The notes under the pieces were generated by a model. The model made no database searches and had not been told where the DNA came from. It worked only from the letters and a program-made list of their open reading frames with translations. A program made the position numbers and the translations under genes. A DNA stretch of 64,000 nucleotides, taken from contig CACZCX010000001.1 in assembly GCA_902779875.1 (NCBI GenBank), positions 10,930-74,929 of the forward strand, written 5' to 3'. Shown here one piece after another: positions 12,678-32,558 of the stretch (its first letter is position 1; each line of letters begins with the position of its first letter). Source of the stretch: an uncultured Bacteroidales bacterium (lineage in GTDB: Bacteria; Bacteroidota; Bacteroidia; Bacteroidales; Bacteroidaceae).

Positions 12678-12706
12678 TAATGAATAGTGATTTAATTGGT
12701 TTACGA

Positions 12707-12714
12707 CAAAGGTA
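12707..12714 (-). promoter_or_regulatory. -7 promoter box (TACCTTTG) for the GH31 pair
   Basis: Exact TAnnTTTG on the minus strand 30 nt upstream of the ATG at 12677. Confidence 0.5.
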
Positions 12715-12794
12715 ATCAAAGTGATCCTTTCGGGAGAAATTTTTTGAGACAAAATAAAATACTTATCTTCAAAGCACCAATAAATTGACTTGTC

Positions 12795-16980: not shown

Positions 16981-17013
16981 GAATTGAGAATTGAGAATTG
17001 AGAATTGAGAATT
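16981..17013. repeat. Tandem heptamer array (GAATTGA x4.7 on the plus strand, AATTCTC on the metK strand)
   Basis: Four perfect 7-nt units plus a partial unit. The array fills the gap between the DPP3 stop (17012-17014, overlapping the last unit) and the metK promoter box. Confidence 0.95.
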
Positions 17014-19008: not shown

Positions 19009-19950
19009 TTATCCTTTTTTACTTTTCAGTCCCGATAATATCACACCGCCAAGTATCAGGGCGGATCCCGTGCCCGATGTCACCGACATGCTCTCGCCAA
19101 GGAATATGATGGCGCCAATGAGAGTGAACACCGGGTTCAAATATACATAGTTTGTGGCAGTTACGTTTCCGATAACCAACATAATCCTGTTCCAGAGCGC
19201 AAAGCAGAACAGTGATGCTATGGTTGACAGGAACAGAAGGTTTCCCCACACCTGTATGCTGTCAAACCGTACCATGGCCAGGTTTGAGTTATCGGACAGG
19301 AAGAGTACGGGCATGATGGTGAGCAGTCCGTAGAAGAACACCTTGCGGGTGGCGAACAGCGTGCCGTAGCGGTTGGTCATCTGCCCCATGAACTGGCTGT
19401 AGAAAGCCCAGCTCAGGGCTGCCGTAAAGGCCAGCAGGTCACCCTTGGGCGACAGGTTCAGGCTGGTGCCGTCAAATATCACCATCACCATACCCGACAG
19501 AGCCAGCACGGTACCGGCAATAAGTGGGAACCTAACCTTGACATGCTCCAGTTCGCTTATGATCCTGCTCTTTACGGTATGTTTCAGAACAAGCGTGAGC
19601 AGTATGGTTAGAAGCGGAGCCACACAGACTATGAACGATACGTTGCAGGCCTGCGTATATTTGAGTGCCGTGTTCTCGGTAAGGAAATAGAGTGAGCCGC
19701 CGGCTATACCCATAAGCAGGAACAGCAGTTCATGGCGCAGGCTGCGGGAGAATAACCTCCTGTACTCCCCTCCCCGTATAAGGCAGGCGGTGAGCAGTCC
19801 CGTATAGGCTATCACGAATCTGATGGTGAATATCTGCGCCGGTGAGAGTCCCTGGTTTATGAGTGTCTTGGTCGATACGAAAGTCACTCCCCAGAGAGCC
19901 ATCGTCATGAAAGCAAGTGCATGGTATAGAAATATTCCCTCTTTTTTCAT
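19009..19950 (-). CDS. EamA/DMT-superfamily transporter
   Basis: 313 aa with about 10 hydrophobic helices in two EamA-like halves. It lies 7 nt after the GT2 stop and 2 nt before the DPP3 start. Confidence 0.75.
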   Translation of the reverse strand: MKKEGIFLYHALAFMTMALWGVTFVSTKTLINQGLSPAQIFTIRFVIAYTGLLTACLIRGGEYRRLFSRSLRHELLFLLMGIAGGSLYFLTENTALKYTQACNVSFIVCVAPLLTILLTLVLKHTVKSRIISELEHVKVRFPLIAGTVLALSGMVMVIFDGTSLNLSPKGDLLAFTAALSWAFYSQFMGQMTNRYGTLFATRKVFFYGLLTIMPVLFLSDNSNLAMVRFDSIQVWGNLLFLSTIASLFCFALWNRIMLVIGNVTATNYVYLNPVFTLIGAIIFLGESMSVTSGTGSALILGGVILSGLKSKKG

Positions 19951-19957
19951 GTATGTG

Positions 19958-20767
19958 TCAGTTGGTTATAAAATCCTTAAGCCCCATAATCCATCCTTTT
20001 TTGAGAACCATGAGATTTATCTCACAGCGGAAAGGACGGAACAGATCATGGTCTTTAGCGTATTTCTTGAATGTCTTGAGCGAGCGTATCCTGTTCCTGT
20101 AGCGGTTACGGTCTCTTTTACGGCTTACGCTTGAAGGCATTATGTTGTAATGGTAGAGTGTGGTAGTGTCCGATGCTATCCGGCGGGCCGATATAAGGGC
20201 GCAGGCCAGGAAGCAGGTGTCTTCGGCACTGTGTGTATCGGGAAAACAGATGCCGTTGTCCGTAAGGAAAGACCTTCTGTAAATAAAGGTGGTGAAATAT
20301 GATACGTAATGTCTCAGGAACGCTTTCTTATGCCGGCGGGTGAATTCTCCGCTCTCTGTCTCAGGGTTGCGTCTTATCTGGTTGGGGCGGTCCTGATAAT
20401 CAAAGGAGATATTGCAGTACGCCAGATCGGCATTCTCTTTTACGGCTGCGTCATACAGTTTCAGGCAGAAATCGGGCTCAATCCGGTCATCACTGTCCAC
20501 GAACGCAATATAATCAGCGCTTGCCGCCGCTATTCCCGTATTGCGGGCTGCACCCGGTCCCTTGTTCGTGCCGTTATCGGCAAACACGATATTCATGTCA
20601 GGGTGGTTTCCGGCAAAAGCGCGGGCCCTGTCAATGCTGTCATCATGGCCATGGTCATCAACCAACACGATCTCCAGGTCTGTGAGGGTCTGGCTGCGCA
20701 GAGACTCAAGGCAGGGGATAATGTAATCACCTGCATTATAAACCGGTATGATGACTGACACCTTCAT
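19958..20767 (-). CDS. Glycosyltransferase family 2
   Basis: MKVSVIIPVYNAGDYI..., VDDHGHDDS and FVDSDD (DxD) motifs. Confidence 0.85.
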   Translation of the reverse strand: MKVSVIIPVYNAGDYIIPCLESLRSQTLTDLEIVLVDDHGHDDSIDRARAFAGNHPDMNIVFADNGTNKGPGAARNTGIAAASADYIAFVDSDDRIEPDFCLKLYDAAVKENADLAYCNISFDYQDRPNQIRRNPETESGEFTRRHKKAFLRHYVSYFTTFIYRRSFLTDNGICFPDTHSAEDTCFLACALISARRIASDTTTLYHYNIMPSSVSRKRDRNRYRNRIRSLKTFKKYAKDHDLFRPFRCEINLMVLKKGWIMGLKDFITN

Positions 20768-20771
20768 GCTT

Positions 20772-21623
20772 TTACCTGTTTTTTGACAGTTTCTTCCTGA
20801 GCTTGTACGGCCAGCGTGAAATGCGCTGCGGAACCTTTATTATCCACCTTATTATCTTATTGCCGAGAAAAGCCAGCCTGTCCGTAAAGCCGAACCGGGG
20901 TTTTTCAAGGCCGCGTATGGAGTAGGCCTCGTTTATGAGAGCGTCAATCCTTGCCTTCTGCATGCCGCGCTGGGGCTCAAAGAACTTTACTGCCCAATCC
21001 GGTGTGGTATAGAATCGGGCAAACCATGAATGCATGCAGATCCTGTTGCCTTCGGGGTCCAGCAGGATTGTGGTTGTGCCGTCATCATGACGTTGGGACG
21101 GCAGATACAGAGTCTTGAAATTGAATGCCATCCACAGGAAGAACCGGTAGTAGGGTTCCTGGTCATCGCGTCCGAAATCATATCTGGTCTCAAGCCTTTC
21201 CTTGGGGAACGACGATATCATCTGCTCCTTATGCTCCAGGTAGTTGAACTCCTTGACAGCCTTCCTGCTGAAAGCGGTACGTATGAGCTTGAGATTCAGG
21301 ATATTGAAGAACGGGTTCGTGACAATGGGATTTGCCACACGCGGGCAGAATCCGCCGCCGTCGGGACAACCGGCATTGGCATATCCGCCTTCCACCACAT
21401 AGTCAACCAACCTGAACATGGCATCGGGATCGGTAATGAAAGCGTCCTCATCAATATTAATGGCCACATCACACTCCTCATCCTTGAGCATGGTGTAGAA
21501 ATAGCCGTCGGCAGACTGGTCAGTGAGTCTTACCACCGGTATTCCCAATGTCTCATACAGTCCTCTTGAGTATCTGTAGAGTTTCAGGTCAAATGAGCGT
21601 GTAAATATCTTTATTCTGTTCAT
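20772..21623 (-). CDS. Hypothetical protein in the glycopolymer locus (no family recognised)
   Basis: 283-aa ORF embedded with 3-4 nt spacers between two GT2 genes. It contains an acidic INIDEDAF motif and a basic C-terminus. Confidence 0.55.
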   Translation of the reverse strand: MNRIKIFTRSFDLKLYRYSRGLYETLGIPVVRLTDQSADGYFYTMLKDEECDVAINIDEDAFITDPDAMFRLVDYVVEGGYANAGCPDGGGFCPRVANPIVTNPFFNILNLKLIRTAFSRKAVKEFNYLEHKEQMISSFPKERLETRYDFGRDDQEPYYRFFLWMAFNFKTLYLPSQRHDDGTTTILLDPEGNRICMHSWFARFYTTPDWAVKFFEPQRGMQKARIDALINEAYSIRGLEKPRFGFTDRLAFLGNKIIRWIIKVPQRISRWPYKLRKKLSKNR

Positions 21624-21626
21624 GTG

Positions 21627-22703
21627 TCATTTAAAGAACTTGACGAACAGGGCGGTCATGATCCTGTTCACGAATCGGTTAAAAGCCTCGAACCATGCCG
21701 GCCAGCGTTTGTGGTGCCTGCGCCAGTACCTGAGAGCATTGAATCTTATGATCTTGTTCTCCGGGTACAGACGTACCGTACCCAGTCCGTATTTGAGGGT
21801 CACGCCGGTAAGGTATGACTCCAACTCCGTAAAATGCTCCGTGTCAAACATATTGCGCGGTATGTCGAGCAGGTGACACTTAAGCATTATGCGAACCCTG
21901 TTGAGGTAGTACTGCCTTATGAACCTGAGCCTCTCCCCGGAGAGCGTCTGAAGGTCATAGGACTCCAGGAACTCAATCAGCTTGCGGGTCATGAGCTCCA
22001 TCTGGTCCAGGCTGCGTGCCAGGACCTTGGGGTCCATGGTCTGTCCCTCACGTGCCAGGTTATACTGGTAGAGGTTTATGTCGAGGAATGTTATGTCCTT
22101 GGCGCGGAATACCGGATAGCATGACCACTCGGTATCGGTATATGAGATTCCCTCGGTCTGACGGTAACCCATGTCACGCAGCATCTGAGTGCGGTAGGTG
22201 ATGGAGTGCATCAGGAAGAACCTTATGTATCCGTCACTGAGCACGCTGTCCAGGTCATACGCCTTACCGTACTCATAAGGCTCCTTGCCGTATACGTTGT
22301 ATTTGGTAACCTGACGCGAGCCGTCCTCTGATATGGTGTTGAAATGGGTTATGACCATATCGGTCGCGGCATTCTCAAGTGCATCGAGGAATTCCACGAG
22401 CGCACGGCTGTCAAACCAGTCATCGGAATCAAGGATCTTTACGTATCGGCCTTGAGCAACCGGCAGGGCGGCGTTAATGGTGGAGCCGTAGTTGCCGTTG
22501 GGCTTGTCTATCACCGTGACTGAGTCAGGGAAACGCTCCTTGTATGAGTTGGCCACCGCCAGTGAGTTGTCCTTGCTGCCGTCATTGACTACCATGGCCT
22601 CGATGCGTGAGAGGGCACCATCTACCAGGAGCGAGTCAAGACAGCGTGGAAGCAGGGCCTCCATGTTGTAGGTAGGTATTATTATGGACAGCAGTTTGCT
22701 CAT
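21627..22703 (-). CDS. Glycosyltransferase family 2
   Basis: LSIIIPTYNME, VNDGSKDNS and ILDSDD motifs. 4-nt overlap with glf. Confidence 0.85.
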   Translation of the reverse strand: MSKLLSIIIPTYNMEALLPRCLDSLLVDGALSRIEAMVVNDGSKDNSLAVANSYKERFPDSVTVIDKPNGNYGSTINAALPVAQGRYVKILDSDDWFDSRALVEFLDALENAATDMVITHFNTISEDGSRQVTKYNVYGKEPYEYGKAYDLDSVLSDGYIRFFLMHSITYRTQMLRDMGYRQTEGISYTDTEWSCYPVFRAKDITFLDINLYQYNLAREGQTMDPKVLARSLDQMELMTRKLIEFLESYDLQTLSGERLRFIRQYYLNRVRIMLKCHLLDIPRNMFDTEHFTELESYLTGVTLKYGLGTVRLYPENKIIRFNALRYWRRHHKRWPAWFEAFNRFVNRIMTALFVKFFK

Positions 22704-23797
22704 ATGTTCATAGAAAGGACTTTCTCTACGATCTGATGCATGTCATAGTACTTGTACTCGGCCAGTCGTCCTCCGAATATGACGTTGGGCTGACCGGCGG
22801 CAAGTTCCGCATACCTGGCGTAGAGGGAGTTGTTACGTTCGTTGTTGATGGGATAGTAGGGCGATGCACCCTTCTCCCATTTGCGTGAATACTCGTAGGT
22901 TATTACGGTGTCGGGCTGTTTGCCGAACTCAAAATGCTTGTGTTCTATGCAACGGGTGTAGGGTATCTCCGCCTCGGTGTAGTTAACCACTGCATTGCCC
23001 TGGAAATCGCTCACGCCCTCCATAAGCTTGTGCTCGAAACGGAGCGAACGAAAATCCAGCTCTCCCAGACGGTAACCGAAATAGGCATCGATCTGACCGG
23101 TAAAGAGGGTCTTCTCAGCCAGGGAGTCAAAATATTCGCGGTTCTCAAAGTAGTCGGTATCGAGCCTGACCTCTATTCCCTCGAGCAGTTTGCGGAATAT
23201 AGGGGTGTAGCCGCCTATGGGTATACCCTGGTATGTGTCGTTGAAATAGTTGTTGTTGAACTCGAACCGGAACGGCAGACGGCGTATCACGAAAGCCGGG
23301 ATCTCTGTGGCTTTCATGCCCCACTGCTTCTCGGAGTAGCCCTTGACCAGGGTCTCATATATATCCCTGCCGGCCAGTTTGAGCGCCTGCTCCTCCAGGT
23401 TCCGCGGCTCGGTTATATGGGCAAACTCAGCCCTCTGGCTCTCGATTATGGCCTTAGCCTCATCGGGAGTGTTCACGCCCCACAGCTGGTGGAATGTGTT
23501 CATGTTGAAGGGAAGGTTGTAGCGCTTGCCCCTGTAGCATGCTATAGGTGAGTTTATGAAGTCGTTGAATGGAACCAGGCTGTTCATGAAATCCCACACC
23601 TGGCGGTTTGACGTGTGGAATATGTGCGGTCCGTACTTGTGTACGTTTATGCCGTTTATCTCCTCGGTATAGCATCCCCCCGCAATATGGGGGTTACGGT
23701 CTATGACAAGACACCGCTTGCCCGCCTTATGTGCGCGGTAGGCGAACATGCTGCCATAGAGTCCGGCTCCTACTATGAGATAATCGTACTGTTTCAT
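22700..23797 (-). CDS. glf: UDP-galactopyranose mutase
   Basis: FAD fold YDYLIVGAGLYGSMFA, HKYGPHIFHT and C-terminal GGRLAEYKYYDM. Length 365 aa. Confidence 0.92.
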   Translation of the reverse strand: MKQYDYLIVGAGLYGSMFAYRAHKAGKRCLVIDRNPHIAGGCYTEEINGINVHKYGPHIFHTSNRQVWDFMNSLVPFNDFINSPIACYRGKRYNLPFNMNTFHQLWGVNTPDEAKAIIESQRAEFAHITEPRNLEEQALKLAGRDIYETLVKGYSEKQWGMKATEIPAFVIRRLPFRFEFNNNYFNDTYQGIPIGGYTPIFRKLLEGIEVRLDTDYFENREYFDSLAEKTLFTGQIDAYFGYRLGELDFRSLRFEHKLMEGVSDFQGNAVVNYTEAEIPYTRCIEHKHFEFGKQPDTVITYEYSRKWEKGASPYYPINNERNNSLYARYAELAAGQPNVIFGGRLAEYKYYDMHQIVEKVLSMNI

Positions 23798-23809
23798 TTG
23801 ATATCCTCT

Positions 23810-24637
23810 TTACAGGTTGACGTGGCAGTCCGATGTATCAACGCACACGAACTTGGCGTGGATTCGTCTCTTCTCCTTGGGCGGGACAGCCATATAGTCT
23901 CCGTACATATCCTTGAGTCGGGCATCAGGGTTCTTGGGAGCGGGATACATCCTTCCCTCAAACAGGATCTCCGACGGGGGTGTCATCTCTGACTGCAGGG
24001 TGGGATAGCCGTATATGAGACGGTCTATCGGCGTAAGCTCGCGGTCTTTTTTTGAGAACAGGCATATCAGTTTCCATATGCCCTTGAACAGGACATAGGA
24101 GACAGGGAACACAAAGTATGAGATTATGTTCCTGAATGAGAGCCTGGCATGATAGTGAAAGAATCCGTGTGCCTTGCATATGCGTTTGCGCATGAACTTG
24201 AGCAATCCCTTGGGAACCGAAGGATAGGGAACATCGGCAAACACATCGATAGATACACCTTTATGATAATTACTGCGGAAATCATCAAAATCATGGATGA
24301 ACAGGGTGTTGTCCTTGCGGATCTTGAACAGGCCGTCGCCCATGCATGACTCGGGGTCGGTCACCTCAGTCTGCATGAAATAGCCTTTGGCGAGCTTGTC
24401 TGCGCCTATGGACTTGAACTTCAGCCAATCAGCCAACGGCATGCTCACGTCAATGTCATCGTCCCAGGGAATGAAACCCTTATGACGGACAGCGCCGAGC
24501 AGTGTGCCAAAGTCCAGCCAATAGACCAGACCGTTCTCCCTGCATACGCGGTCAAACTCATTCAGGACATCGATGGATGCCAGCTGAGCCTTGCGTAACG
24601 GAGTCTCCGGGCCGTTGTATTCTGAGTAATCTTCCAT
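23810..24637 (-). CDS. LicD-family phosphotransferase (paralog 1)
   Basis: LDFGTLLGAVRHKGFIPWDDDIDV signature. Confidence 0.85.
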   Translation of the reverse strand: MEDYSEYNGPETPLRKAQLASIDVLNEFDRVCRENGLVYWLDFGTLLGAVRHKGFIPWDDDIDVSMPLADWLKFKSIGADKLAKGYFMQTEVTDPESCMGDGLFKIRKDNTLFIHDFDDFRSNYHKGVSIDVFADVPYPSVPKGLLKFMRKRICKAHGFFHYHARLSFRNIISYFVFPVSYVLFKGIWKLICLFSKKDRELTPIDRLIYGYPTLQSEMTPPSEILFEGRMYPAPKNPDARLKDMYGDYMAVPPKEKRRIHAKFVCVDTSDCHVNL

Positions 24638-25680
24638 TATAGTATGTTCTTTACTATTTCAAGTGTATCGGGGATGCCCTGGGTAACCGGAATCATCGGT
24701 TTCCATCCCAGTTTCTTTATGGCGGTGTTGTCGAGACGTGTCGACTCGTTGGGGGAGAATGCACGCTTCTCGCTCTCATCGGCCTCATGGTAAACCACGT
24801 TCACATGTCCGGCGCGTGCGGTGATCTCAGCCAGCTCACGTATGGAGATGAAACTGTTCTCATCCGATATATTGTATGCCTGCCCGCTCTCTCCGTAGAA
24901 CAGGGCAAAGAGCAGGGCCGATACGCAGTCGGCCACGTGGCAGTAACTGCGGCTCTGGGTCCCGGCGCTCTTGAGCACTATGTCCTGACCGCTTACGGCA
25001 TTCCTTATGAACTGGACGTAGACGCGGTTATCGGCCTTGGTGAAAGCGGGGCCGTAGGTGTGTGACGGACGTACGGTAACCACATCGGTCCCGAACTGTG
25101 CATGATAGCATGCACACAGGTTCTCGGCGGCTCTCTTGGAGGTGGGATAGCAGGAACGGGGAGCGGTCACGTCCACATATCCGCTGTCATGCTCCTTCCA
25201 CTCTGTCGGGCTGTCGCTCTCTCCGTAGACTTCGGCCGATGATACGTATAACATACGCTCCATGCCGTGGGCTGTCCCGTAACGGAGCAGGTTGTCCGTT
25301 CCCAGTATGGTGCCGCGCAGGGTTCCTACAGGGTCCGATGAGAACGCTGCCGGGAAGGAGAATCCGGCCGCATGGATTATGTACTGGAATAAGATGTCGG
25401 AGTTGACAGGCTCCGTGAGGTCCTGAACCATGAAATGGAAACGGGGATTCTCCCAGTAGGAGGCAAACCTCTTCCTGGCACCCTCCTCGCTGCGTCCGCA
25501 TATCCATACCTGGTAGCCGGCCTGTCCGTTTGACATAAGTACGTCAACCAGGAAAGATCCTATCATTCCGGTGGCTCCGGTCACGAGGATATTCTTTCCC
25601 TCCAACCGTTTCCAGGGGAACTCATCGGACAGGACACGTTCCATGTACTGCCTGTATAATCCTATCTCAGTGAGACTCAT
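24637..25680 (-). CDS. NAD-dependent epimerase/dehydratase-type (extended) SDR
   Basis: Rossmann motif VTGATGMIGSFL and catalytic YPTSK. The ATG at 25680 forms an ATGA overlap with the upstream stop. The longest ORF begins at a TTG (25689). Confidence 0.8.
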   Translation of the reverse strand: MSLTEIGLYRQYMERVLSDEFPWKRLEGKNILVTGATGMIGSFLVDVLMSNGQAGYQVWICGRSEEGARKRFASYWENPRFHFMVQDLTEPVNSDILFQYIIHAAGFSFPAAFSSDPVGTLRGTILGTDNLLRYGTAHGMERMLYVSSAEVYGESDSPTEWKEHDSGYVDVTAPRSCYPTSKRAAENLCACYHAQFGTDVVTVRPSHTYGPAFTKADNRVYVQFIRNAVSGQDIVLKSAGTQSRSYCHVADCVSALLFALFYGESGQAYNISDENSFISIRELAEITARAGHVNVVYHEADESEKRAFSPNESTRLDNTAIKKLGWKPMIPVTQGIPDTLEIVKNIL

Positions 25681-26387: not shown

Positions 26388-26411
26388 ATCTTTACCGGTT
26401 CTTTATGTTTC

Positions 26412-26419
26412 CAAAGATA
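26412..26419 (-). promoter_or_regulatory. Internal -7 promoter box (TATCTTTG) within the glycopolymer locus
   Basis: Exact TAnnTTTG on the minus strand in the only >20-nt gap of the locus, 24 nt upstream of the ATG at 26387. Confidence 0.45.
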
Positions 26420-26443
26420 GTCAAAAGTTCATTATGTACCGAC

Positions 26444-27265
26444 CTATCGTTTCACGACTATATCCAACAGCCTGTGATTCTCCTTCCTGTCAGGAATGGA
26501 GTTCCATTTGCCGTAAAGTACAGTAAGATAATGGTCTACATTGCAGGGGGCCTTGAATATGTGTCCCTCAAACTCCATTTCCTTTAGGGGAAATATGTCA
26601 CTGAGGAAACGCTGGGTATAGAATCCCGTCCCGTAATCGTGAATAAGTGAATCCGTGTGTAACACTCTGCCTATAAACCGAGCGGTAGCTATGGTCAGTT
26701 CTGCCAGAGGGTAGAGCAGGACTCCCGTCATATGTCTCAACCAGCCATCCTGAATAAGGTTGTAACGGCGGCGGTAGCAGCGTCCGTAAAACAGGTCAAT
26801 CTTTCTTGATACTGCCGGAACACCGTTCGTTTCATAGAATATGTCGAGCCATATGCTCTCCTCACGTTTCATGGTGCCACCCTTGACCTTGGGGTCGTCA
26901 ACCATCCTGGTAACCGTGACGGTGTTGTTGTAGAGCCTGCCCCAGCGACGGGTGTAATCCTTGCTTGAGTTGGCATCCACGAACGAGAACGGCTCCTGAA
27001 GATCGTTCTTAATGGCCCTGGCCAGTCTTTTTTGGTCTCTTTTGAGTACGCATACATCAAGGTCGTCATCCCATGGAATGAATCCCCCATGCCGTGCTGC
27101 ACCTAAAAGGGTTCCGGAGTCCAGCCAGTAGCTTATGTTGTTTTTCCTGCAAATCCTGTCGAATTCAACGAGTATGTCCAGAAGGTGGAGCTGCAGATTG
27201 CGCAGTTTTGAACCGTCCGGGTTGAATTGGGCTCTCAGTGCAAGTTGTATATCGTTATCAATCAT
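26444..27265 (-). CDS. LicD-family phosphotransferase (paralog 2)
   Basis: LDSGTLLGAARHGGFIPWDDDLDV signature. 8-nt overlap with the flippase gene. Confidence 0.85.
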   Translation of the reverse strand: MIDNDIQLALRAQFNPDGSKLRNLQLHLLDILVEFDRICRKNNISYWLDSGTLLGAARHGGFIPWDDDLDVCVLKRDQKRLARAIKNDLQEPFSFVDANSSKDYTRRWGRLYNNTVTVTRMVDDPKVKGGTMKREESIWLDIFYETNGVPAVSRKIDLFYGRCYRRRYNLIQDGWLRHMTGVLLYPLAELTIATARFIGRVLHTDSLIHDYGTGFYTQRFLSDIFPLKEMEFEGHIFKAPCNVDHYLTVLYGKWNSIPDRKENHRLLDIVVKR

Positions 27266-28820
27266 TTTTCCTGAGTGATTTGATTACGTTACAGAACATC
27301 TCAATGGCATGTTTGCGCTCCGTTTTAGTCGTTCCGATGGTGTAGACAAATAGGCATACAATAAGCATGCTGGCTGCAATCACTACCAGCGGTCCAAGCC
27401 ATTCCGTCTCAAACAGGGGAGTCACATACACCTTTACCAGCAGTGACAGCGCCGTACTTATCACGGTAACTGTAATAACCGGAACCAGTACCGTACGCAG
27501 ATAGTTCCTTATATCCAGTCCTATCTGTCTGCGCATGAACCACAGACGTTCTATGTGAGTAAAGAATGTAACCGCTATGGAGATTACGAACACCGATGCA
27601 GGTGGCAGTCCCAGATATTTTATTCCGATGTATGACAACGGGACAATCATGAGTAGCGTACAGCCTATGACCAGCTGATAGTTGCGTATCTTGCCGGTAG
27701 CCTGAATGGATGCGGCCATGGGACTGGTAAAGCAGTTGAGCATGCCGTCAATAAGCATAAGCTGCGTTATGAGGTATGCCTCATCGGGCACATTACGTCC
27801 TCTCAGCCAGATGGGGAGTATGAAATGGGTCTCCAGGAGTAAGGGGAGTGCAACCAGGAACAGCAGGAAATATGAGAATCTGGTACTCTGGCATATCAGC
27901 TTACGCATATCGTCCATCTCACCAGCCGCGTATGACTTGTAGAGCTGAGGTCTGGTGGCGGTAAAGAAATTGGTGTTGAGCTGCGAGAGAGTTACGTATA
28001 CCTTGTTACCTATACCTCTGGCCGCACTTACGATTGGACCGAATGTAGAGTTCAGCAGAAGGCTCAGACCCTGGCTTTTGAGTACATCGGCCGATGAGCC
28101 TATCAGATTCCATCCGGCATAGGAGAATATCTCCTTGAACCTCTCCCTGTCCATGGTGAACCTGAACCTGCATTCGCCGTAAAAAAGGTTGCAGTATATC
28201 CAGTAGAAGATGGTGTTGACTAGCTGTACTCCGGCCAGCAGTCCGGCATAGAGAATAAGCCTGCTGTCCTTGTCATCCTGGGTATGTGAAAGAAGAATGG
28301 CAATCACAAGATTGGCAAAGGCCTCGAACAGACTCAGGTAGGCGAATACCTTCATCTTCTCCTTGGCCACCACCATACCTTGATAGGGGGTACGAAGTAT
28401 TATCATGGCAAAGGAGAATACGCTGAACTGGAACACCCAGTGCGCCGCCTCGATATGTTCTCCCACTTTCATCCTGTTGTCCAGGTACCATACGCCTGCG
28501 GTCTCGCCCAGGATCACTATCAGGACTGTGAGTATAAAGAATACGGTCAGGCTCAGGTTGAACACCAGCTGAAGTCCGTTGCTGTTACCTTTGGCCATCT
28601 CGTATGAATAATAGCGTTGGCAGGCCGATGACATGGTGGAGCTTATGAACGATACCATCATCACGATTGATCCAACGGCATCATACACGCCGTAATGTTC
28701 AGTTCCCAGGGCATTGATAATGACTCTGGAGGTGTACAGTCCCACCACCATCACTATCAACATCCTCAGGTAGAGGAGCAGGGTGTTCTTGGCTATCCTT
28801 TGCTGATTGATTTCGGTCAT
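27258..28820 (-). CDS. Polysaccharide/oligosaccharide flippase (Wzx/MOP superfamily)
   Basis: 520 aa, about 14 hydrophobic helices, N-terminus RIAKNTLLLYLRMLI typical of Wzx-like proteins. Confidence 0.75.
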   Translation of the reverse strand: MTEINQQRIAKNTLLLYLRMLIVMVVGLYTSRVIINALGTEHYGVYDAVGSIVMMVSFISSTMSSACQRYYSYEMAKGNSNGLQLVFNLSLTVFFILTVLIVILGETAGVWYLDNRMKVGEHIEAAHWVFQFSVFSFAMIILRTPYQGMVVAKEKMKVFAYLSLFEAFANLVIAILLSHTQDDKDSRLILYAGLLAGVQLVNTIFYWIYCNLFYGECRFRFTMDRERFKEIFSYAGWNLIGSSADVLKSQGLSLLLNSTFGPIVSAARGIGNKVYVTLSQLNTNFFTATRPQLYKSYAAGEMDDMRKLICQSTRFSYFLLFLVALPLLLETHFILPIWLRGRNVPDEAYLITQLMLIDGMLNCFTSPMAASIQATGKIRNYQLVIGCTLLMIVPLSYIGIKYLGLPPASVFVISIAVTFFTHIERLWFMRRQIGLDIRNYLRTVLVPVITVTVISTALSLLVKVYVTPLFETEWLGPLVVIAASMLIVCLFVYTIGTTKTERKHAIEMFCNVIKSLRKND

Positions 28821-28822
28821 GA

Positions 28823-29764
28823 TTATATCCAGAATTTCTCCTTGATCTTGGGGAACGGCACATCGGGCACTTTTGACTCGAGAGCATCATAAATCTTGCT
28901 TGCAAAACAGATGTCGTGCAGTGCTATTCCTATGTTGTAGCTCAGAATACGCTCTTTATCGTTTTCTCTTCCGGGGTTATTGCCCAGAAGTACCTGGCTC
29001 AGCTCGTCGAATTTCCTGAATCTGTCAAAGTATCTGAATTCGTGAACGTGGGCGGTGTCATCGGCAAAGACCTTGTCAAAGAACAGGTCGCAGTTCTGGA
29101 ATCCGCGGGTGTGTATAGGAACGACAAGACAGCCTTCCCTGTAGCATTCGTCAGGTGCCACCAGTTCAGTGGCGGCAGTGACGCTTGACACTACCACATC
29201 GGCTCCGGATACCAGGTCATTGTGGTTGGAGACAGTCTCAAAACGTACGTTACCGTACTTTTCAAACCTTTCCATGAACAGCTGCTCCTGTCCCTTGTAT
29301 TCCATGAGAACTACGGTGATGGGATCCTTAACCGTTTCAAGAAGGCAGAGAAGTGTGGCACGTGCGGTATTGCCCAATCCTATGAACGAGTAGACCGATG
29401 CTTTTGAAGACTTGAGGGTATTGATGGCAAGGCTGGCAACTGCGCCGGTTCTCATAGCCGTGATCCAGTTGGCGTCCATCAACGCCAACAGATGACCGTT
29501 GTTTCCGTCATAAAGCAACAGTTCACTGTTGAGTGACGGCTTTTCAAGTGGGTATCTGCTTACCTCCTTTACTCCGAATCTGTTTACGGTTCCGGGTATG
29601 TAGCAGGGCATGGTGTTATAGAAGACCTCGCCAAAGGGTTTAAGGCTGTTTTTATGAGGCAAGATGCAATCATACTTCATCTTAAAACTCTCTGTAACCC
29701 ATTGGATACAATCCTTGGGCGAAATACCCAGGTCAATAATCTGTTGCTGTGTGATCAGTTTCAT
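28823..29764 (-). CDS. Ornithine cyclodeaminase / mu-crystallin family NAD(P)-dependent enzyme
   Basis: WITAMRTGAVASL and Rossmann FIGLGNTARATL motifs. 313 aa. Confidence 0.75.
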   Translation of the reverse strand: MKLITQQQIIDLGISPKDCIQWVTESFKMKYDCILPHKNSLKPFGEVFYNTMPCYIPGTVNRFGVKEVSRYPLEKPSLNSELLLYDGNNGHLLALMDANWITAMRTGAVASLAINTLKSSKASVYSFIGLGNTARATLLCLLETVKDPITVVLMEYKGQEQLFMERFEKYGNVRFETVSNHNDLVSGADVVVSSVTAATELVAPDECYREGCLVVPIHTRGFQNCDLFFDKVFADDTAHVHEFRYFDRFRKFDELSQVLLGNNPGRENDKERILSYNIGIALHDICFASKIYDALESKVPDVPFPKIKEKFWI

Positions 29765-31575
29765 AAAGCTTTAAGTGTGGAGTAGAGATAATGGTTGTCA
29801 TTCCTGTCGCGGACAGCTATCCTTATGTAGTTACGGCCCGAGAAAGCGCTTTTACCGCCACAGTCCTTGACCAGGATGTTGTATTTCTGCAGGAGCAGTC
29901 CCGTCAGTTCAGCTGATGTGAACCTGCCTGTCACTTCACAGAGGAAATAGTTGGCCTGTGACGGAATGACCCGCAGGAAAGGAATCTCCTTCAGTTCGTT
30001 ATAGAAGAGTTCCCGTTCAGCGATGAATTTGTCACAAGCATCAAAGTAATCCTTCTCATACTTGTTGAAGATCTGCATGTAGAACTCTCCGAACGAATTG
30101 ATGTTCCATATGGCAACCTCCTTGCGCATGCTCCTGATCATATCGGTATCGGCCGATGCCACAATGCCTAGTCGCAGTCCGGGAACACCGTATGATTTGC
30201 TGATGGACTTGACTACGGTCATGTGAGGATTATCCTCAAGTATGCTGTTCTTAAGCAGTGAGTTTTGGATGTGGTTCTCTGTGAAATCAACGAAACTCTC
30301 ATCGACTATGAGTCTGATGCCCTGCTTCCCGGTCCAGTCAATCAGTCTGAGCAGTTGGTTGAACGGGATGTAATTGCCCGAAGGATTGTCGGGGTTGATA
30401 AGCAGCAGTGATGAGATTCCCTTGCCGCCGAAATATCCGATGACGTCATCGGCCGTATAGCTGAAATCCCTGTTCTCAGGTGTAAAGAACACGGCGTTTT
30501 CAGGGAGACTCCTGTTGGGATATTCCTCGAATGTAGGCAGAATGAATCCGGTCTTTCCGCTGCAATGGTTTTCAATTAAGCACTTTATCAGTTCGGCGGC
30601 ACCGTTTCCGACACACACCAGTTCCTGTTTGATACCGAAGTATTTGCTGGCAATCAGTGAGTTGACTGCCATTCCTGACGGATATTCGGTGAGAAGCGTA
30701 TCAAAGTTGGCTCTCATCTCATCCTTCATCCTTGCGGAGGGAAAATAGGGGTTGACCAGATAACAGAAGTCCTTGAGGTGCGGGAAACGCCAGTAACCGC
30801 CGTAGCGGCTGTGGTACTTTTTCATGAGAGCGTCACCCTCGGAGAATATGGTTTCGGCAATATCCTTATCCTGTATGTCATCAATCTCGTACCACTTCTC
30901 GTCGGTTATGGGAAGCGCCTTCAGGGCTGATTTGTCAAGTGCTGTGATAACGCGTAACACCTGTTCGTAATACTCGTTGTTTCCCATAGCCCGGCTGTAT
31001 GCCTCAAGGAAGGGGACATACTGGTTACGGGAGAAATCGCAACTGAACTTGTATATGTTGCATGTCTTGAAATAGAATGGCACATCGGCGTACTTGAAAG
31101 CCTTCTTGGGTACGAAACTGACTATGTTGTTGTCCTCGTCTATACGTACCATCGTGCCGTCCATCCAGGTCTCGTACTTGGCGACCAGTGCAAGATTGGG
31201 ATAGGGGTTGTCTATTATCAGGTTCAGCATGCGGCTTTCAAACACCAGGTCGCTCTCCAGAAGCAGGGTGTCATCCTCCTGAAGTTCCTTCTTGGCAAGT
31301 GCCAGGGAGTATATATTGTTGGTCTTGTCGTATATCGGGTTCAGGATATATTCTATCTTGAGTTTTCCTTCATACCGGTTTCCGATGTACTGCATCAGGT
31401 TGTCAGCCTGATAACCTACCACAAGAACCACTCTTTTGAGATTCAGTTCAGCCAGTTGGGTCAGCATGCGGTCAATGAGTTTTACCCCGTTGACCTCTAT
31501 CATGCACTTGGTGTTCTCTTTTGTAAGTTCACCTAGTCTCTTGCCCATTCCGGCTGCCAGTATTATTGCTTGCAT
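29761..31575 (-). CDS. Bifunctional protein: LicC-like nucleotidyltransferase fused to a HisC/CobD-type class I/II PLP enzyme
   Basis: N-terminal ~245 aa: MQAIILAAGMGKRLG...NNIYSL. C-terminal ~350 aa: LVNPYFPS, INPDNPSG, VDESFVDF, the PLP-lysine motif SISKSYGVPGLRLG, and PSQANYFL. Confidence 0.85.
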   Translation of the reverse strand: MQAIILAAGMGKRLGELTKENTKCMIEVNGVKLIDRMLTQLAELNLKRVVLVVGYQADNLMQYIGNRYEGKLKIEYILNPIYDKTNNIYSLALAKKELQEDDTLLLESDLVFESRMLNLIIDNPYPNLALVAKYETWMDGTMVRIDEDNNIVSFVPKKAFKYADVPFYFKTCNIYKFSCDFSRNQYVPFLEAYSRAMGNNEYYEQVLRVITALDKSALKALPITDEKWYEIDDIQDKDIAETIFSEGDALMKKYHSRYGGYWRFPHLKDFCYLVNPYFPSARMKDEMRANFDTLLTEYPSGMAVNSLIASKYFGIKQELVCVGNGAAELIKCLIENHCSGKTGFILPTFEEYPNRSLPENAVFFTPENRDFSYTADDVIGYFGGKGISSLLLINPDNPSGNYIPFNQLLRLIDWTGKQGIRLIVDESFVDFTENHIQNSLLKNSILEDNPHMTVVKSISKSYGVPGLRLGIVASADTDMIRSMRKEVAIWNINSFGEFYMQIFNKYEKDYFDACDKFIAERELFYNELKEIPFLRVIPSQANYFLCEVTGRFTSAELTGLLLQKYNILVKDCGGKSAFSGRNYIRIAVRDRNDNHYLYSTLKAL

Positions 31576-32408
31576 AACGGTACTAATTTTTCCTTCCAGT
31601 AAAAATGTATATAGCTCTGCAACGGAACCCTCTCGTTTTCAGGGGGTAGCTGCATATAATCTCCGTAAACGGTCCTGAGCATCCTGTCATAACCGTCCGC
31701 AATGAAGAACTCTTCATTCCCGAACTGAACCAGATGGTAGGAATCAATATCGGACTTCTCATATCTGGCCATTATTCCGGGATAAGCCAATTGGGCCACA
31801 TGACCGGTGCTTCCGTACGGGATAGTTCCGTCAATACGGATGATTTCATCCACATATGACTCCGGCTTTTTCCAGAACAGGCTGAACAGTTTCTTCTTGA
31901 CGGTGTTGAGGTTAAAGAAGAAGGATTTCTCGAGAGAGAGCCTGCGTAACGCTTTCCTGCCCCTTACGGCGTCATGGTGTAACTTCCGGAGATTCATGTA
32001 TGATGACTCGAAAGTCTCGGCATCATCGCTGACAGAGTCCAACGGAAAGATGTCAACCCATACGCCTACATTGTCCGAATTCCTAAGCCAGGGAGTGAAA
32101 GTGGTGAAACAGGTCTCTTTGGCATCGCATATCCTGGCAAAAGCCAACATGCAGTCCTTCCTGTTTTTCCTGTTTATCATGACGTATCGGTCACTCCTGT
32201 AGGTCCGGCATAACTTGTCATAATCGGGACGCGGCATGAAAATGTCGATATCATCGTCCCATGGAATAAAACCTTTGTGACGTATGGCTCCTATCATAGT
32301 GCCGTACGCAAGGGAGTATTTGAGTCCGTTCTCAACACAGAACCTGTGTATCTCTCTCAATACATCAAGTGATTTGAGTTGCAGTTCTTTAAGGGTAAGT
32401 TCTCTCAT
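31563..32408 (-). CDS. LicD-family phosphotransferase (paralog 3)
   Basis: LAYGTMIGAIRHKGFIPWDDDIDI signature. 13-nt overlap with the downstream fusion gene. Confidence 0.85.
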   Translation of the reverse strand: MRELTLKELQLKSLDVLREIHRFCVENGLKYSLAYGTMIGAIRHKGFIPWDDDIDIFMPRPDYDKLCRTYRSDRYVMINRKNRKDCMLAFARICDAKETCFTTFTPWLRNSDNVGVWVDIFPLDSVSDDAETFESSYMNLRKLHHDAVRGRKALRRLSLEKSFFFNLNTVKKKLFSLFWKKPESYVDEIIRIDGTIPYGSTGHVAQLAYPGIMARYEKSDIDSYHLVQFGNEEFFIADGYDRMLRTVYGDYMQLPPENERVPLQSYIHFYWKEKLVPLCKQ

Positions 32409-32426: not shown

Positions 32427-32558
32427 TTATAACGCCTCGTCATCGGGCTGCTCGGGAGTTGACGGCCGTGGCTTAATACCGTGTTTACGCGATTTCTCCC
32501 AGGCGGCCTTGCGCTTGAGATAGTCTTCATAATGGTTTTCAAGATAGTTGTCGGCCAT
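32427..32558 (-). CDS. Candidate small ORF (43 aa, MADNYLENHYEDYLKRKAAWEKSRKHGIKPRPSTPEQPDDEAL)
   Basis: Below the ORF-track size cutoff. The ATG is 2 nt after the folK stop and the TAA is 18 nt before the LicD start, so it fills an otherwise unexplained 152-nt gap. I have an unverified recollection of similar small Bacteroidales proteins. Confidence 0.4.
   Translation of the reverse strand: MADNYLENHYEDYLKRKAAWEKSRKHGIKPRPSTPEQPDDEAL

Follow-up and report, generated by a model that had tools for sequence, protein, structure and literature searches.

What does a compact cluster carrying three LicD-family genes build at the surface of a Gram-negative gut bacterium? The stretch of DNA that we analysed (the window, 64,000 nucleotides) comes from an uncultured gut Bacteroidaceae and holds a genuine surface-sugar gene cluster of 13 tightly packed genes on the minus strand, between positions 19009 and 32408 (Table 1). 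An earlier note, made from the letters alone, had proposed that it assembles a glycan and encodes three LicD-family phosphotransferases along with two distinct modules for CDP activation, and the family assignments support this. The product proposed there, a glycan that contains galactofuranose and bears both a polyol phosphate and an amino-alcohol phosphate "or similar", is also the best reading that we can give of the families and fusions; the cluster very likely decorates such a glycan with the phosphates of a sugar alcohol and of an amino alcohol.

Gene content of the cluster

All the open reading frames of the earlier note were present on the minus strand where it had placed them, and the families it had named scored above the Pfam gathering score. 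The HMM check of the families assigned the three LicD-like frames to PF04991, all above the cut-off of 22.6. Two genes, the OCD/mu-crystallin gene and the gene of 283 amino acids, had been omitted from that finding.

Table 1. Genes of the cluster from its upstream to its downstream end, with the evidence for each family.
Product	Position in window	Strand	Evidence
LicD3, LicD-family phosphotransferase	31563-32408	minus	PF04991 134.0 bits (cut-off 22.6)
Nucleotidyltransferase/PLP fusion	29761-31575	minus	PF12804/PF00483 residues 3-133, PF00155 residues 304-598
OCD/mu-crystallin-family NAD(P) dehydrogenase, imine-reductase type	28823-29764	minus	PF02423 96.5 bits
MOP-superfamily (Wzx-like) flippase	27258-28820	minus	PF01554 26.3 bits (cut-off 24.9)
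LicD2, LicD-family phosphotransferase	26444-27265	minus	PF04991 113.3 bits (cut-off 22.6)
TarI-type (IspD-family) cytidylyltransferase	25677-26387	minus	PF01128 139.7 bits
Extended-SDR reductase	24637-25689	minus	PF01370 169 bits
LicD1, LicD-family phosphotransferase	23810-24637	minus	PF04991 109.6 bits (cut-off 22.6)
UDP-galactopyranose mutase Glf	22700-23797	minus	TIGR00031 382.8 bits (cut-off 303.75); PF03275 259.5 bits
GT2 glycosyltransferase	21627-22703	minus	PF00535 94 bits
GT-A-fold protein, 283 aa	20772-21623	minus	AlphaFold model and Foldseek
GT2 glycosyltransferase	19958-20767	minus	PF00535 118 bits
EamA/DMT transporter	19009-19950	minus	PF00892 104 bits

The gaps between the genes, from upstream to downstream, were -13, -4, +2, -8, +56, -13, -1, +12, -4, +3, +4 and +7 nt, which matches the claim that neighbouring genes almost throughout overlap or lie no more than 13 nt apart. 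The sixth gap becomes -4 nt if the SDR starts at its own ATG at 25680, which is likely to be the true start; the gene caller gives the SDR a length of 347 aa in the recurrent contigs. At least four independent contigs from metagenomes share this gene order, and the GC content is 0.47-0.49 over 26-32 kb versus 0.53 on both sides.

Regarding sugar assembly, Glf and the two GT2 enzymes noted before were confirmed by TIGR00031 and PF00535. The GT2 gene at 21627-22703 has orthologues (61-66%) downstream of Glf in two other loci, L005 and L007, adjacent to it in L007. The order there is LicD1, then Glf, then the GT2 orthologue, that is, this GT2 moves together with Glf and LicD1. The protein of 283 amino acids has no match in Pfam or NCBIfam, and the named ones among its 690 homologues are all called "hypothetical". 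Nevertheless, D58, E59 and D60 are invariant among the homologues, and the AlphaFold model (pLDDT 90.3) retrieved only GT-A glycosyltransferases with Foldseek (E about 4e-5, TM 0.3-0.4); judging from the model, this is probably a third glycosyltransferase.

The flippase, called Wzx-type in the earlier note, lies narrowly above the cut-off of PF01554 and has 14-16 hydrophobic TM-like segments. Its identity as Wzx, for which the evidence is those 26 bits, is weak, and the NCBIfam WZX_like model gives 18.5 bits only. Homologues with 34-68% identity adjoin the fusion gene in other loci, mostly with a LicD2-clade gene. The EamA gene, whose product has 10 TM-like segments, occupies the distal end of the locus. 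It had been compared with LicB: the family (EamA, PF00892) stands, but similarity specific to LicB was not found, and a PDB sequence search (E<=1) gave no similarity to any solved transporter. Orthologues (68-73%) close two loci whose glycan genes differ (L001 and L022), abutting an M49 peptidase gene in L022; instead of being an analogue of LicB, EamA may be a gene conserved at the end or flank of such loci.

The probable CDP-alditol module and the LicD paralogs

The cytidylyltransferase scored 168.1 with the ribitol-5-P cytidylyltransferase model NF001183 (cut-off 166) and 180.4 with the ispD model TIGR00453, below its cut-off of 181.3, and its best PDB matches are TarI 4JIS, 6XHP and 2VSH. 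It is not the housekeeping IspD, which is encoded elsewhere in the window by a second gene (51195-51899) that exceeds the ispD cut-off. The pair of an IspD/TarI-type cytidylyltransferase beside a reductase-type SDR is therefore present, as had been claimed; the analogy with TarI/TarJ fails on the reductase. TarJ is a medium-chain Zn-ADH, whereas this protein is an extended SDR whose closest solved relative is HS5.17, the CDP-6-D-fructose reductase of C. jejuni (8V4G/8V4H, 6.7e-38), and a TarJ-type assignment was rejected. The module thus resembles HS5.18/HS5.17 and Mnp1/Mnp2, not TarI/TarJ. The SDR is a probable CDP-ketose reductase, and by its sequence relatives the pair is of the type that converts CDP-ketose to CDP-alditol. 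Adjacent PF01128 and PF01370 genes have been shown biochemically to yield CDP-6-D-glucitol or CDP-mannitol (PMC10918830).

LicD3 is encoded by the first gene of the cluster, which shares 13 nt with the fusion gene. It carries the motif PWDDDID at residue 51; the motif is also PWDDDID in LicD1 and is PWDDDLD in LicD2. LicD3 is 25.6-31% identical to the other two, and a 63%-identical orthologue lies directly upstream of the fusion gene in another locus (L002). The genes of LicD1 and the SDR overlap by one base. Elsewhere, LicD domains occur in fusion proteins of two kinds: octopine-dehydrogenase-LicD proteins in five loci, whose LicD domains fall in the LicD2 clade, and IspD-LicD proteins in two Prevotella loci (L071 and L074), whose LicD domains fall in the LicD1 clade. 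These proteins support a pairing of donors and transferases in which LicD1 is the probable alditol-phosphate transferase and LicD2 probably transfers what the fusion/dehydrogenase branch makes. However, L005 and L007 have LicD1 orthologues without the pair of IspD and extended SDR, so the link of LicD1 to the alditol rests on adjacency and the two Prevotella fusion proteins.

The nucleotidyltransferase/PLP fusion and its dehydrogenase

The best PDB matches of the fusion protein are 6OUX (1.9e-41), CobD 1LC5, LicC 1JYK and PntC 6PD1. The N-terminal domain matches LicC and PntC, and the LicC-like nucleotidyltransferase noted before is upheld by PF12804/PF00483 together with the 1JYK match. The C-terminal part scored 151.8 bits with the CobD model TIGR01140, below its cut-off of 290.55, versus 128.7 with hisC; the PLP domain scored 145.6 bits with 6OUX and 94.8 with 1LC5 against 77.5 or less with any HisC, which places it, by sequence, nearer to the Thr-P/Ser-P decarboxylases than to HisC. 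In 81 fusion homologues 163 of the 604 residues are invariant, including G9, G11, R13, K23 and the PLP lysine K460, so the signature residues are kept in both domains. The PLP domain probably decarboxylates a phospho-amino acid; given the CobD score below cut-off, the alternative is an aminotransferase as in Cj1437, which makes serinol phosphate. The decarboxylation by which Cj1436 turns serine phosphate into ethanolamine phosphate is a precedent from capsule synthesis (PMC12409886). A LicA-type kinase is absent, as had been noted, and a choline-kinase-type domain was found in none of the window's scanned frames. This need not be a gap, since a CobD-like domain would let the pathway start from phosphoserine with no kinase; LicA's absence is accounted for provided that phosphoserine is what the PLP domain decarboxylates. 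The amino-alcohol branch has the look of a kinase-independent, so far uncharacterised pathway.

The OCD gene overlaps the fusion gene by 4 nt. Every NCBIfam match of its product is below cut-off (SbnB family, 89.7), and its PDB matches are Pyr2C reductase, ketimine reductase, AlaDH and SbnB. Among the best 80 of 378 fusion loci, the slot directly downstream of the fusion gene holds an imine-reductase-type dehydrogenase in 67, either an octopine-dehydrogenase homologue (54) or an OCD-family protein (13), and some other gene in 9. A 4-nt start-stop overlap of fusion and dehydrogenase is shared by the window and those relatives with listed reading frames. Over its whole length, the octopine-type partner can be aligned with the octopine dehydrogenase of Pecten (3.6e-43), with the residues matching His212, Arg324 and Asp329 conserved. 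By gene arrangement the adjacent dehydrogenase, here of the OCD family, belongs to the amino-alcohol module, and the substituent is therefore probably N-modified. The conserved slot, together with the octopine-dehydrogenase-LicD and IspD-LicD fusions, suggests an N-modified, possibly opine-type, amino-alcohol phosphate; we found no paper describing such a pathway. The opine reading is weakest at this very locus, because the enzyme here is OCD-type, not octopine-type, and the OCD family catalyses several C=N reactions.

It is conceivable, although we hold it to be rather unlikely, that the branch gives plain phosphoethanolamine, aminopropanol phosphate or serinol phosphate with no opine-type group, the OCD gene being a passenger or serving an unrelated amino-acid reaction. 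Glycans commonly carry plain EtnP (PMC9630907), and the fusion gene is followed directly by a TagF-like gene in B. oleiciplenus and by a LicD gene in L012, without the dehydrogenase; the nine loci with another gene in the slot point the same way. However, two unrelated C=N-acting families sharing one slot in 67 of these 80 loci, the recurrent start-stop overlap and the octopine-dehydrogenase-LicD proteins of five loci all argue against a plain substituent.

Distribution, chromosomal site and proposed product

A search of a one-genome-per-species collection gave 378 places with the fusion gene, and the best 80 of these are nearly all in Bacteroidales, among them Bacteroides hominis, B. oleiciplenus and Prevotella sp. 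P5-50. The statement that this chemistry would be unusual for a Gram-negative gut anaerobe is thus mistaken as far as genomes go: Bacteroidales commonly carry the toolkit, and this is no rare chemistry. In this Bacteroidaceae lineage the cluster is flanked by folK-queA-truB-uppP on one side and by EamA and the M49 peptidase on the other. Close relatives have flanks that are 81-93% identical, and at the same chromosomal site they carry Bcs1-like, TagD-like, TagF-like and phosphonate modules instead; on this comparison the site is fixed, the surface-glycan locus in it varies, and the cluster is one of its alleles.

The best explanation overall, to which we give a probability of about 0.72, is such an allele with two CDP donors and a LicD-decorated glycan. 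From the families, conserved motifs, gene order and gene fusions described above we infer which substrates are used, how the steps follow one another, and a final acceptor that may be a capsule-like polymer, LOS or a protein O-glycan. The two GT2 enzymes and the GT-A protein would assemble an oligosaccharide at the cytoplasmic membrane face on a polyprenyl-phosphate carrier, with UDP-galactofuranose from Glf, and the three cytoplasmic LicDs would draw on two CDP-activated donors to attach non-sugar groups by phosphodiester bonds before the MOP (Wzx-like) flippase exports the decorated unit. The first donor would be a CDP-alditol: the TarI-type enzyme would cytidylylate a ketose phosphate and the extended SDR reduce the CDP-ketose, a step order taken from HS5.18/HS5.17 and Mnp1/Mnp2, with LicD1 the likely transferase. 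For the second donor, which would be kinase-free, the CobD-like PLP domain would turn a phospho-amino acid, most likely O-phospho-L-serine from central metabolism, into an amino-alcohol phosphate such as phosphoethanolamine, which the fused LicC-like domain would activate with CTP. The OCD dehydrogenase would modify the amine before or after transfer, most likely by reductive N-alkylation with a 2-oxo acid to an opine-type group, and LicD2, probably also LicD3, would place the group on two different acceptor positions.

Somewhat less probable than a plain substituent is that the same enzymes serve another target, the outer species-specific portion of the general O-glycan on Bacteroidota proteins (LFG-type) or a lipooligosaccharide extension, and that the product is not a capsule or a teichoic-acid-like polymer. 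Although a flippase and several glycosyltransferases are encoded here, profile scans of the cluster's reading frames found neither an initiating phosphoglycosyltransferase nor Wzy, and the UpxY/UpxZ regulators ahead of the B. hominis copy are missing; the relatives lack all of these at the same site as well, in the stretches examined. LFG loci consist of a flippase and variable glycosyltransferases, and Bacteroidota O-glycans occasionally carry phosphate, glycero- or sugar-alcohol modifications (PMC12871550), which fits. Canonical LFG loci, however, begin with metG and then wzx (PMC12871550), whereas metG here (51906-53978) is followed by the housekeeping IspD. Furthermore, in Bacteroides proper the fusion gene lies in capsule-type loci, in the order UpxY-UpxZ-fusion-OCD-LicD and then a Polysacc_synt (Wzx-type) gene in B. 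hominis, and just downstream of an EpsG-type polymerase gene in B. oleiciplenus; a Wzz/kinase occurs in L075 and a Bac_transf gene in L025.

Compared with the two-donor glycan, a true Lic-type phosphocholine system, in which EamA as LicB analogue imports choline, the LicC-like domain activates it and the LicDs transfer it, is very improbable. The LicC-like and LicD families and a DMT transporter are all there, but no choline kinase was found in the cluster or in any scanned frame of the window, EamA matches no solved transporter and also closes loci of different gene content, and the fusion joins the nucleotidyltransferase to a PLP enzyme for which a choline pathway would have no use. Least credible of all is a cobamide (vitamin B12) nucleotide-loop enzyme, CobD threonine-phosphate decarboxylase plus CobY-like nucleotidyltransferase, in a fortuitous glycan context: CobD is the top NCBIfam match of the C-terminal domain and one source names a homologue [quoted passage not shown], but the CobD score is under its cut-off, the closest solved relatives of the N-terminal domain are LicC and PntC, no cobamide gene was found among the fusion neighbours scanned with Pfam, and the fusion gene lies among glycan genes in the loci examined in detail, with a LicD or TagF-like CDP-alcohol phosphotransferase in at least 59 of the best 80 of 378.

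Gene content and the probable CDP-alditol branch

The cluster consists of 13 co-directional ORFs on the minus strand at window 19009-32408, exactly at the coordinates given beforehand, and all the ORFs and families that the earlier note had named were recovered by Pfam and NCBIfam profile searches (see table). The tight packing that it described was also found, with spacers of -13 to +12 nt and a single exception, the 56 nt between the LicD2 and IspD-like genes (26388-26443), which is the only sizeable spacer in the cluster. The gene order is identical in four independent ENA metagenome contigs. The three LicD paralogs score 109.6, 113.3 and 134.0 bits against PF04991 (cut-off 22.6), and Glf exceeds the equivalog cut-off of TIGR00031 (382.8 against 303.75), which makes it a UDP-galactopyranose mutase. 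The central proposal of the note, a galactofuranose-containing glycan carrying several phosphodiester-linked substituents, is supported.

Genes of the cluster (window coordinates) and fused ORFs in loci around homologues of the LicC-like/PLP fusion (L numbers)
Feature	Coordinates	Strand	Family or source
LicD3	31563-32408	-	PF04991
LicC-like nucleotidyltransferase-class I/II PLP enzyme fusion	29761-31575	-	Pfam/NCBIfam
OCD/mu-crystallin-family dehydrogenase	28823-29764	-	PF02423
MOP-type membrane protein	27258-28820	-	PF01554
LicD2	26444-27265	-	PF04991
IspD/TarI-type cytidylyltransferase	25677-26387	-	PF01128
Extended SDR	24637-25689	-	PF01370
LicD1	23810-24637	-	PF04991
Glf	22700-23797	-	TIGR00031
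GT2	21627-22703	-	Pfam/NCBIfam
283-aa protein	20772-21623	-	without any family match
GT2	19958-20767	-	Pfam/NCBIfam
EamA	19009-19950	-	EamA/DMT superfamily
Octopine-dehydrogenase-LicD ORFs	L033:11821-13647; L035:11858-13648; L036; L049:2447-4258; L077:11815-13608		Prevotellaceae/Bacteroidales MAGs
IspD-LicD fusion proteins, 524-527 aa	L071:86-1669; L074:4432-6006		L071, Prevotella sp. CAG:891

Regarding the alditol branch, the IspD paralogue of the cluster passes the ribitol-5-phosphate cytidylyltransferase model NF001183 (168.1, cut-off 166) and narrowly misses the ispD equivalog (180.4, cut-off 181.3), and its top PDB matches are the TarI structures 4JIS, 6XHP and 2VSH. A second IspD gene at 51195-51899 on the minus strand, adjoining metG (51906-53978), does pass the ispD cut-off with 185.3 and is therefore the housekeeping copy. 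An MDR/ADH_zinc domain, as in a TarJ-type medium-chain alcohol dehydrogenase, is absent from the cluster; the partner reductase belongs to the extended SDRs, and its best PDB matches (6.7e-38, 133.8 bits) are 8V4G and 8V4H, the CDP-6-D-fructose reductase of C. jejuni HS5.17. The two genes are adjacent and overlapping, and such adjacent PF01128 and PF01370 pairs have been described as makers of CDP-glucitol or CDP-mannitol, the ketose phosphate being cytidylylated first and reduced afterwards (PMC10918830).

On the basis of the HS5.17-related SDR and of this pair definition, we read the two genes as a putative CDP-alditol synthase of the HS5.18/HS5.17 (CDP-6-D-glucitol) or S. pneumoniae 35A Mnp1/Mnp2 (CDP-mannitol) type. 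The adjacency of the two families is the same as in those systems, and HS5.17 is the best solved relative of the SDR. However, the cytidylyltransferase scores best against ribitol-5-phosphate enzymes, so to speak on the TarI side, a C5 and a C6 ketose phosphate not being distinguishable from the window sequence, and in the window a LicD-type transferase is directly coupled to the pair.

The fusion protein and its dehydrogenase partner

The second branch begins with the fusion protein. Its residues 267-603 align with 6OUX, a 'threonine phosphate decarboxylase-like enzyme' (145.6 bits), and with the CobD structure 1LC5 (94.8 bits), whereas any HisC reaches at most 77.5 bits; among the NCBIfam models, CobD scores 151.8 and hisC 128.7. 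The CobD model, TIGR01140, is the best-scoring one for the fusion, yet its cut-off is 290.55 and therefore the PLP domain is not a CobD. A role in cobamide synthesis was rejected because of the genomic context and the domain relatives. The C-terminal domain thus appears nearest to phospho-amino-acid decarboxylases, although the profile and PDB ranking only leans towards a decarboxylase over an aminotransferase. In 81 homologues, 163 of the 604 positions are invariant, including the glycine-rich nucleotidyltransferase motif and the PLP lysine K460 of the SxSK motif. The N-terminal domain matches LicC and the PntC fusion in the PDB, the assignment as a LicC-type cytidylyltransferase holding at family level only (PF12804, 46 bits; LicC 1JYK, 4.3e-11).

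The 6OUX protein is presumably the serine-phosphate decarboxylase SMUL_1544 of Sulfurospirillum, an enzyme that governs norcobamide synthesis. CobD, the 6OUX enzyme and Cj1436 are the best sequence relatives of the fusion domain and share with it the class I/II PLP fold and the conserved lysine. In C. jejuni capsule synthesis, Cj1436 converts serine phosphate into ethanolamine phosphate (PMC12409886), and its paralogue Cj1437 makes serinol phosphate; therefore there is a precedent for serine-phosphate decarboxylation feeding capsule decoration. The C. jejuni product is dephosphorylated and amide-linked, whereas the product here is predicted to be activated with CMP and then transferred in phosphodiester linkage. 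Unlike CobD, the fusion domain is joined to a nucleotidyltransferase, and its product is not expected to enter a cobamide. A similar arrangement is the PntC-aminotransferase fusion of Treponema denticola (6PD1), where a LicC-like domain is likewise joined to a PLP enzyme, the source of its amine-bearing substrate, and LicD-like transferases lie nearby, but the window PLP domain is class I/II and CobD-like, not a class V AEP transaminase. Phosphonate tailoring differs in that PEP mutase is absent from the window cluster, while one relative (L005) has a Ppm module beside the fusion.

Such a fusion would turn a phosphorylated central metabolite into a CMP-activated amino-alcohol phosphate. This would explain why a LicA-type kinase is missing, as the earlier note had observed: no choline-kinase domain is found in any cluster ORF or in the other window ORFs scanned. 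A Lic-1 phosphocholine pathway was rejected, because there is no kinase and the PLP fusion would have no role in it.

The gene directly 3' of the fusion was classified in the best 80 of the 378 places where the fusion has relatives in a one-genome-per-species collection. It is an octopine/nopaline-dehydrogenase homologue in 54 loci and an OCD/mu-crystallin protein, as in the window, in 13, so that the two classes account for 67/80; the slot holds another gene in nine loci, a LicD in two and a TagF-like gene in one, and one locus ends too near the fusion to be classified. The window protein (PF02423, 96.5 bits) is closest to pyrroline-2-carboxylate reductase, ketimine reductase, archaeal alanine dehydrogenase and SbnB. 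The octopine-type partner in the relatives (PF02317, 118-128 bits) aligns end to end with the scallop (Pecten) octopine dehydrogenase 3C7A (3.6e-43), and the residues matching His212, Arg324 and Asp329, the catalytic triad of the scallop enzyme, are retained. Furthermore, in five loci the gene directly 3' of the fusion encodes octopine dehydrogenase (PF02317) and LicD (PF04991) in a single polypeptide of about 600 aa.

The two dehydrogenase families are unrelated, yet both act on C=N bonds. We conclude from these gene neighbourhoods that the dehydrogenase probably belongs to the amino-alcohol branch and would modify the head group, the most economical chemistry being a reductive condensation of the primary amine of the head group with a 2-oxo acid. 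The OCD variant of the window may bring about the same N-modification. The proposed pathway would need no kinase: phosphoserine would be decarboxylated, the amino-alcohol phosphate activated with CMP, its nitrogen reductively alkylated with a 2-oxo acid by the octopine-dehydrogenase homologue or, in the window, by the OCD/mu-crystallin enzyme, and the head group finally transferred by a LicD or TagF-like enzyme. The use of two families would then represent either a non-orthologous displacement or two chemotypes. We propose, with a probability of roughly one in three (0.35), that many gut and rumen Bacteroidales decorate their surface glycans with an opine-type N-(carboxyalkyl)amino-alcohol phosphate, undescribed in the phylum, which may be for instance N-(1-carboxyethyl)ethanolamine phosphate.

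The only glycan precedent that we found for the predicted product is the N-[(R)-1-carboxyethyl]ethanolamine phosphate of Proteus mirabilis O-polysaccharides, for whose biosynthesis we found no description in the literature. Nor did we find, in full-text literature, a description of a module of fusion and dehydrogenase, or relevant work linking opine/OCD dehydrogenases, CobD-like decarboxylases or CDP-ethanolamine to LicD or Bacteroides capsules; a paper on a Shewanella capsule proved unrelated. The opine-dehydrogenase and OCD families are familiar from opine, amino-acid and metallophore pathways; a part in glycan decoration is not known to us. Compared with Pecten octopine dehydrogenase (3C7A), CENDH (1BG6), SbnB and ketimine reductase, the neighbour of the fusion falls in the same families in those 67 loci, but unlike the known opine dehydrogenases and OCD imine reductases it is coupled to, or fused with, LicD. 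If the proposal is true, it would give the first genetic explanation of carboxyethyl-ethanolamine phosphate in Proteus O-antigens.

Probable LicD donors and the pneumococcal comparison

The acidic DxD-type motif occurs as PWDDD[IL]D in all three LicDs (residues 59, 66 and 51), and their pairwise identity is only 25.6-31%. They stem from ancient duplications or from separate acquisitions; a recent duplication does not account for them. Neighbour-joining of the three window copies with 61 LicD ORFs of the loci gave three clades, one per window LicD. Counts of LicD genes by tblastn are lower bounds; for example, a short LicD in L025 was missed.

The LicD2 clade holds the LicD domains of the five octopine-dehydrogenase-LicD fusions, and nearly all its members are found no more than about 7 kb from the fusion, most of them within about 2.6 kb. 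The LicD1 clade holds the LicD domains of the two IspD-LicD fusion proteins, in which, by their domain content, the cytidylyltransferase of a branch and its phosphotransferase would form one protein; in L005 and L007, the LicD1 orthologues adjoin Glf, with GT2b just beyond. The LicD3 clade includes a copy directly 5' of the fusion in L002, the copy of the fusion-OCD-LicD series of Bacteroides hominis and a copy beside the phosphonate module of L005. Judging by this clade membership, the donor of LicD2 is likely the product of the fusion/dehydrogenase branch, that of LicD1 is likely a CDP-alditol and that of LicD3 is probably the same as for LicD2. The simplest assignment would be that LicD2 and LicD3 put amino-alcohol phosphate on two acceptor positions and LicD1 adds alditol phosphate. 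The assignment of LicD1 is weakened by its orthologues in L005 and L007, where the pair of IspD and extended SDR is missing; in L007, an SDR-TagD-like fusion lies immediately 5' of the LicD1 orthologue.

Pneumococcal LicD1 and LicD2 place phosphocholine from the same donor on two acceptor positions, and two of the window LicDs may have a common donor in the same way. The analogy with the pneumococcal lic/tar genes drawn in the earlier note held for the families LicC, LicD and TarI, and likewise for the putative MOP flippase encoded alongside, with a LicC-family nucleotidyltransferase and several LicDs in both systems, but it failed for LicA and TarJ. The window lacks LicA, its LicC-like domain is joined to a CobD-like PLP enzyme with a dehydrogenase next to it, its reductase is an extended SDR instead of the Zn-ADH TarJ, its EamA showed no LicB-specific similarity in a PDB sequence search at E<=1, and its host is a diderm Bacteroidaceae. 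The suggestion that such chemistry is unusual in this setting had to be abandoned, as the toolkit is widespread and modular in Bacteroidales, with fusion relatives at 378 places. We could find no characterised counterpart of the frequent module formed by the PLP-nucleotidyltransferase fusion and an imine-reductase-type dehydrogenase. What is new is this recurrent, predicted kinase-independent head-group pathway with an imine-reductase step, apparently uncharacterised.

The window locus and its relatives suggest that Bacteroidales commonly diversify their glycans in a modular way, by means of phosphodiester-linked alditol and amino-alcohol groups. The surface glycans of gut Bacteroidales influence phage susceptibility, immune recognition and colonisation, and the chemistry of their non-sugar substituents is almost unknown; if the head group is charged or zwitterionic, it would be relevant to effects on host immunity like those of the zwitterionic Bacteroides polysaccharides. 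The module is carried by the cultured Bacteroides hominis and Prevotella sp. P5-50 (and by B. oleiciplenus without the dehydrogenase), thus the predicted chemistry is directly testable.

Chromosomal site, possible acceptors and remaining genes

The cluster lies between housekeeping genes, folK, queA, truB, uppP and ftsX on the 5' side and an M49 dipeptidyl-peptidase and metK on the 3' side. According to the fusion protein and the flanks, the nearest relatives are uncultured Bacteroidaceae from the guts of horse, yak, buffalo and deer. Six of them (L001-L005 and L022) have the folK-queA-truB-uppP flank in common, at 81-93% protein identity, and differ in the glycan genes between the conserved flanks. 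Therefore, the window shows a single variant of a hypervariable glycan locus whose place in the chromosome is fixed, its alleles being built from cassettes of CDP-X synthesis plus phosphotransferase. L001 has a Bcs1-like IspD-SDR fusion and two TagF-like CDP-alcohol phosphotransferases, and L003 and L007 have the SDR-TagD-like fusion. At the same site, L005:5692-9982 encodes a triple fusion of nucleotidyltransferase (NTP_transf_3), cytidylyltransferase (CTP_transf_like) and PEP mutase, followed by a TPP-dependent (phosphonopyruvate) decarboxylase and an Fe-ADH, with a LicD3-like gene adjoining; this module looks like a hydroxyethylphosphonate-type one.

The GC content is 0.47-0.49 at 26001-32000 (LicD2-Wzx-OCD-fusion-LicD3) against about 0.53 on either side, with 0.53 in the IspD-SDR-LicD1-Glf part and likewise in the upstream flank. 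This drop fits a mosaic origin, and the GC step together with the 56-nt gap suggests two joined cassettes.

No convincing terminator was found within the cluster; the only strong hairpin of the region follows metK (15468-15437), so the glycan genes may be co-transcribed with housekeeping genes. The spacer between folK and LicD3 is occupied by a 43-aa ORF (32427-32558, minus strand; MADNYLENHYEDYLKRKAAWEKSRKHGIKPRPSTPEQPDDEAL), which begins 2 nt behind folK and stops 18 nt short of LicD3, leaving no promoter-sized gap ahead of the glycan genes. The promoter scan used the sigma-70 consensus, which is uninformative for Bacteroidales. The M49 (DPP III-like) peptidase gene (17012-19006, minus strand) lies 2 nt 3' of EamA and was considered as a cluster member, but we treated it as flank, its product being an M49 peptidase with the HECLGH motif. 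The protein has a lipoprotein-like signal at its N-terminus.

Among the ORFs of the cluster there is no initiating phosphoglycosyltransferase, Wzy, Wzz, Wza or UpxY/UpxZ. Within the genus Bacteroides itself, the fusion sits in capsule-type loci, and genes of the canonical capsule set (UpxY/UpxZ regulators, Wzy polymerase, initiating transferase) surround it in B. hominis and B. oleiciplenus as well as in L025 and L075. On the chromosome of B. hominis Tbg-374 (L059:8977-14957), UpxY, UpxZ, the fusion, OCD and LicD are followed by a Polysacc_synt (Wzx-type) gene. This cultured strain has the same fusion-OCD pairing as the window within a typical capsule locus and is a tractable system for the predicted chemistry. 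Equally, the product of the window locus could be a unit that is not polymerised, destined for LOS or for the protein O-glycan of Bacteroidota. Loci of flippase and glycosyltransferases make the outer portion of this O-glycan, in which phosphate and sugar-alcohol groups are occasional, the LFG locus consisting of metG followed by wzx and variable glycosyltransferases (PMC12871550). That arrangement is absent from the window, where metG is followed by the housekeeping IspD at the usual place of wzx.

The MOP protein has 14-16 hydrophobic segments and a position typical of Wzx, and its lineage adjoins the fusion in relatives, usually with a LicD2-type gene nearby. Topology and position agree with a Wzx flippase, while the profile support is weak (PF01554, 26.3 against a cut-off of 24.9; NF041503, 18.5 against 300). 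The 283-aa protein has about 690 homologues, the named ones all 'hypothetical', and an invariant D58-E59-D60. Its AlphaFold model (pLDDT 90.3) gives only GT-A glycosyltransferases as significant Foldseek matches (E about 4e-5, TM 0.3-0.4). It is probably a third glycosyltransferase of an undescribed family: the invariant DED triplet and the confident GT-A-like model, with no Pfam or NCBIfam model, make it a candidate for a new one. EamA gave no match to a solved structure at E<=1 in a sequence search of the PDB and also closes relatives' loci of differing glycan content, and we cannot support a LicB-like transporter.

Elsewhere in the window, a TMEM260-like membrane protein of 1116 aa (1555-4905, minus strand; PF11028, 252 bits) and a weakly YfhO-like one of 814 aa (48815-51259, plus strand), with a GT4 gene beside it (47621-48787, minus strand), resemble GT-C-type glycosyltransferases and may act in the periplasm on lipid-linked glycans. 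At 7987-12752, the minus strand encodes a tandem pair of GH31 glycoside hydrolases (796 and 792 aa).
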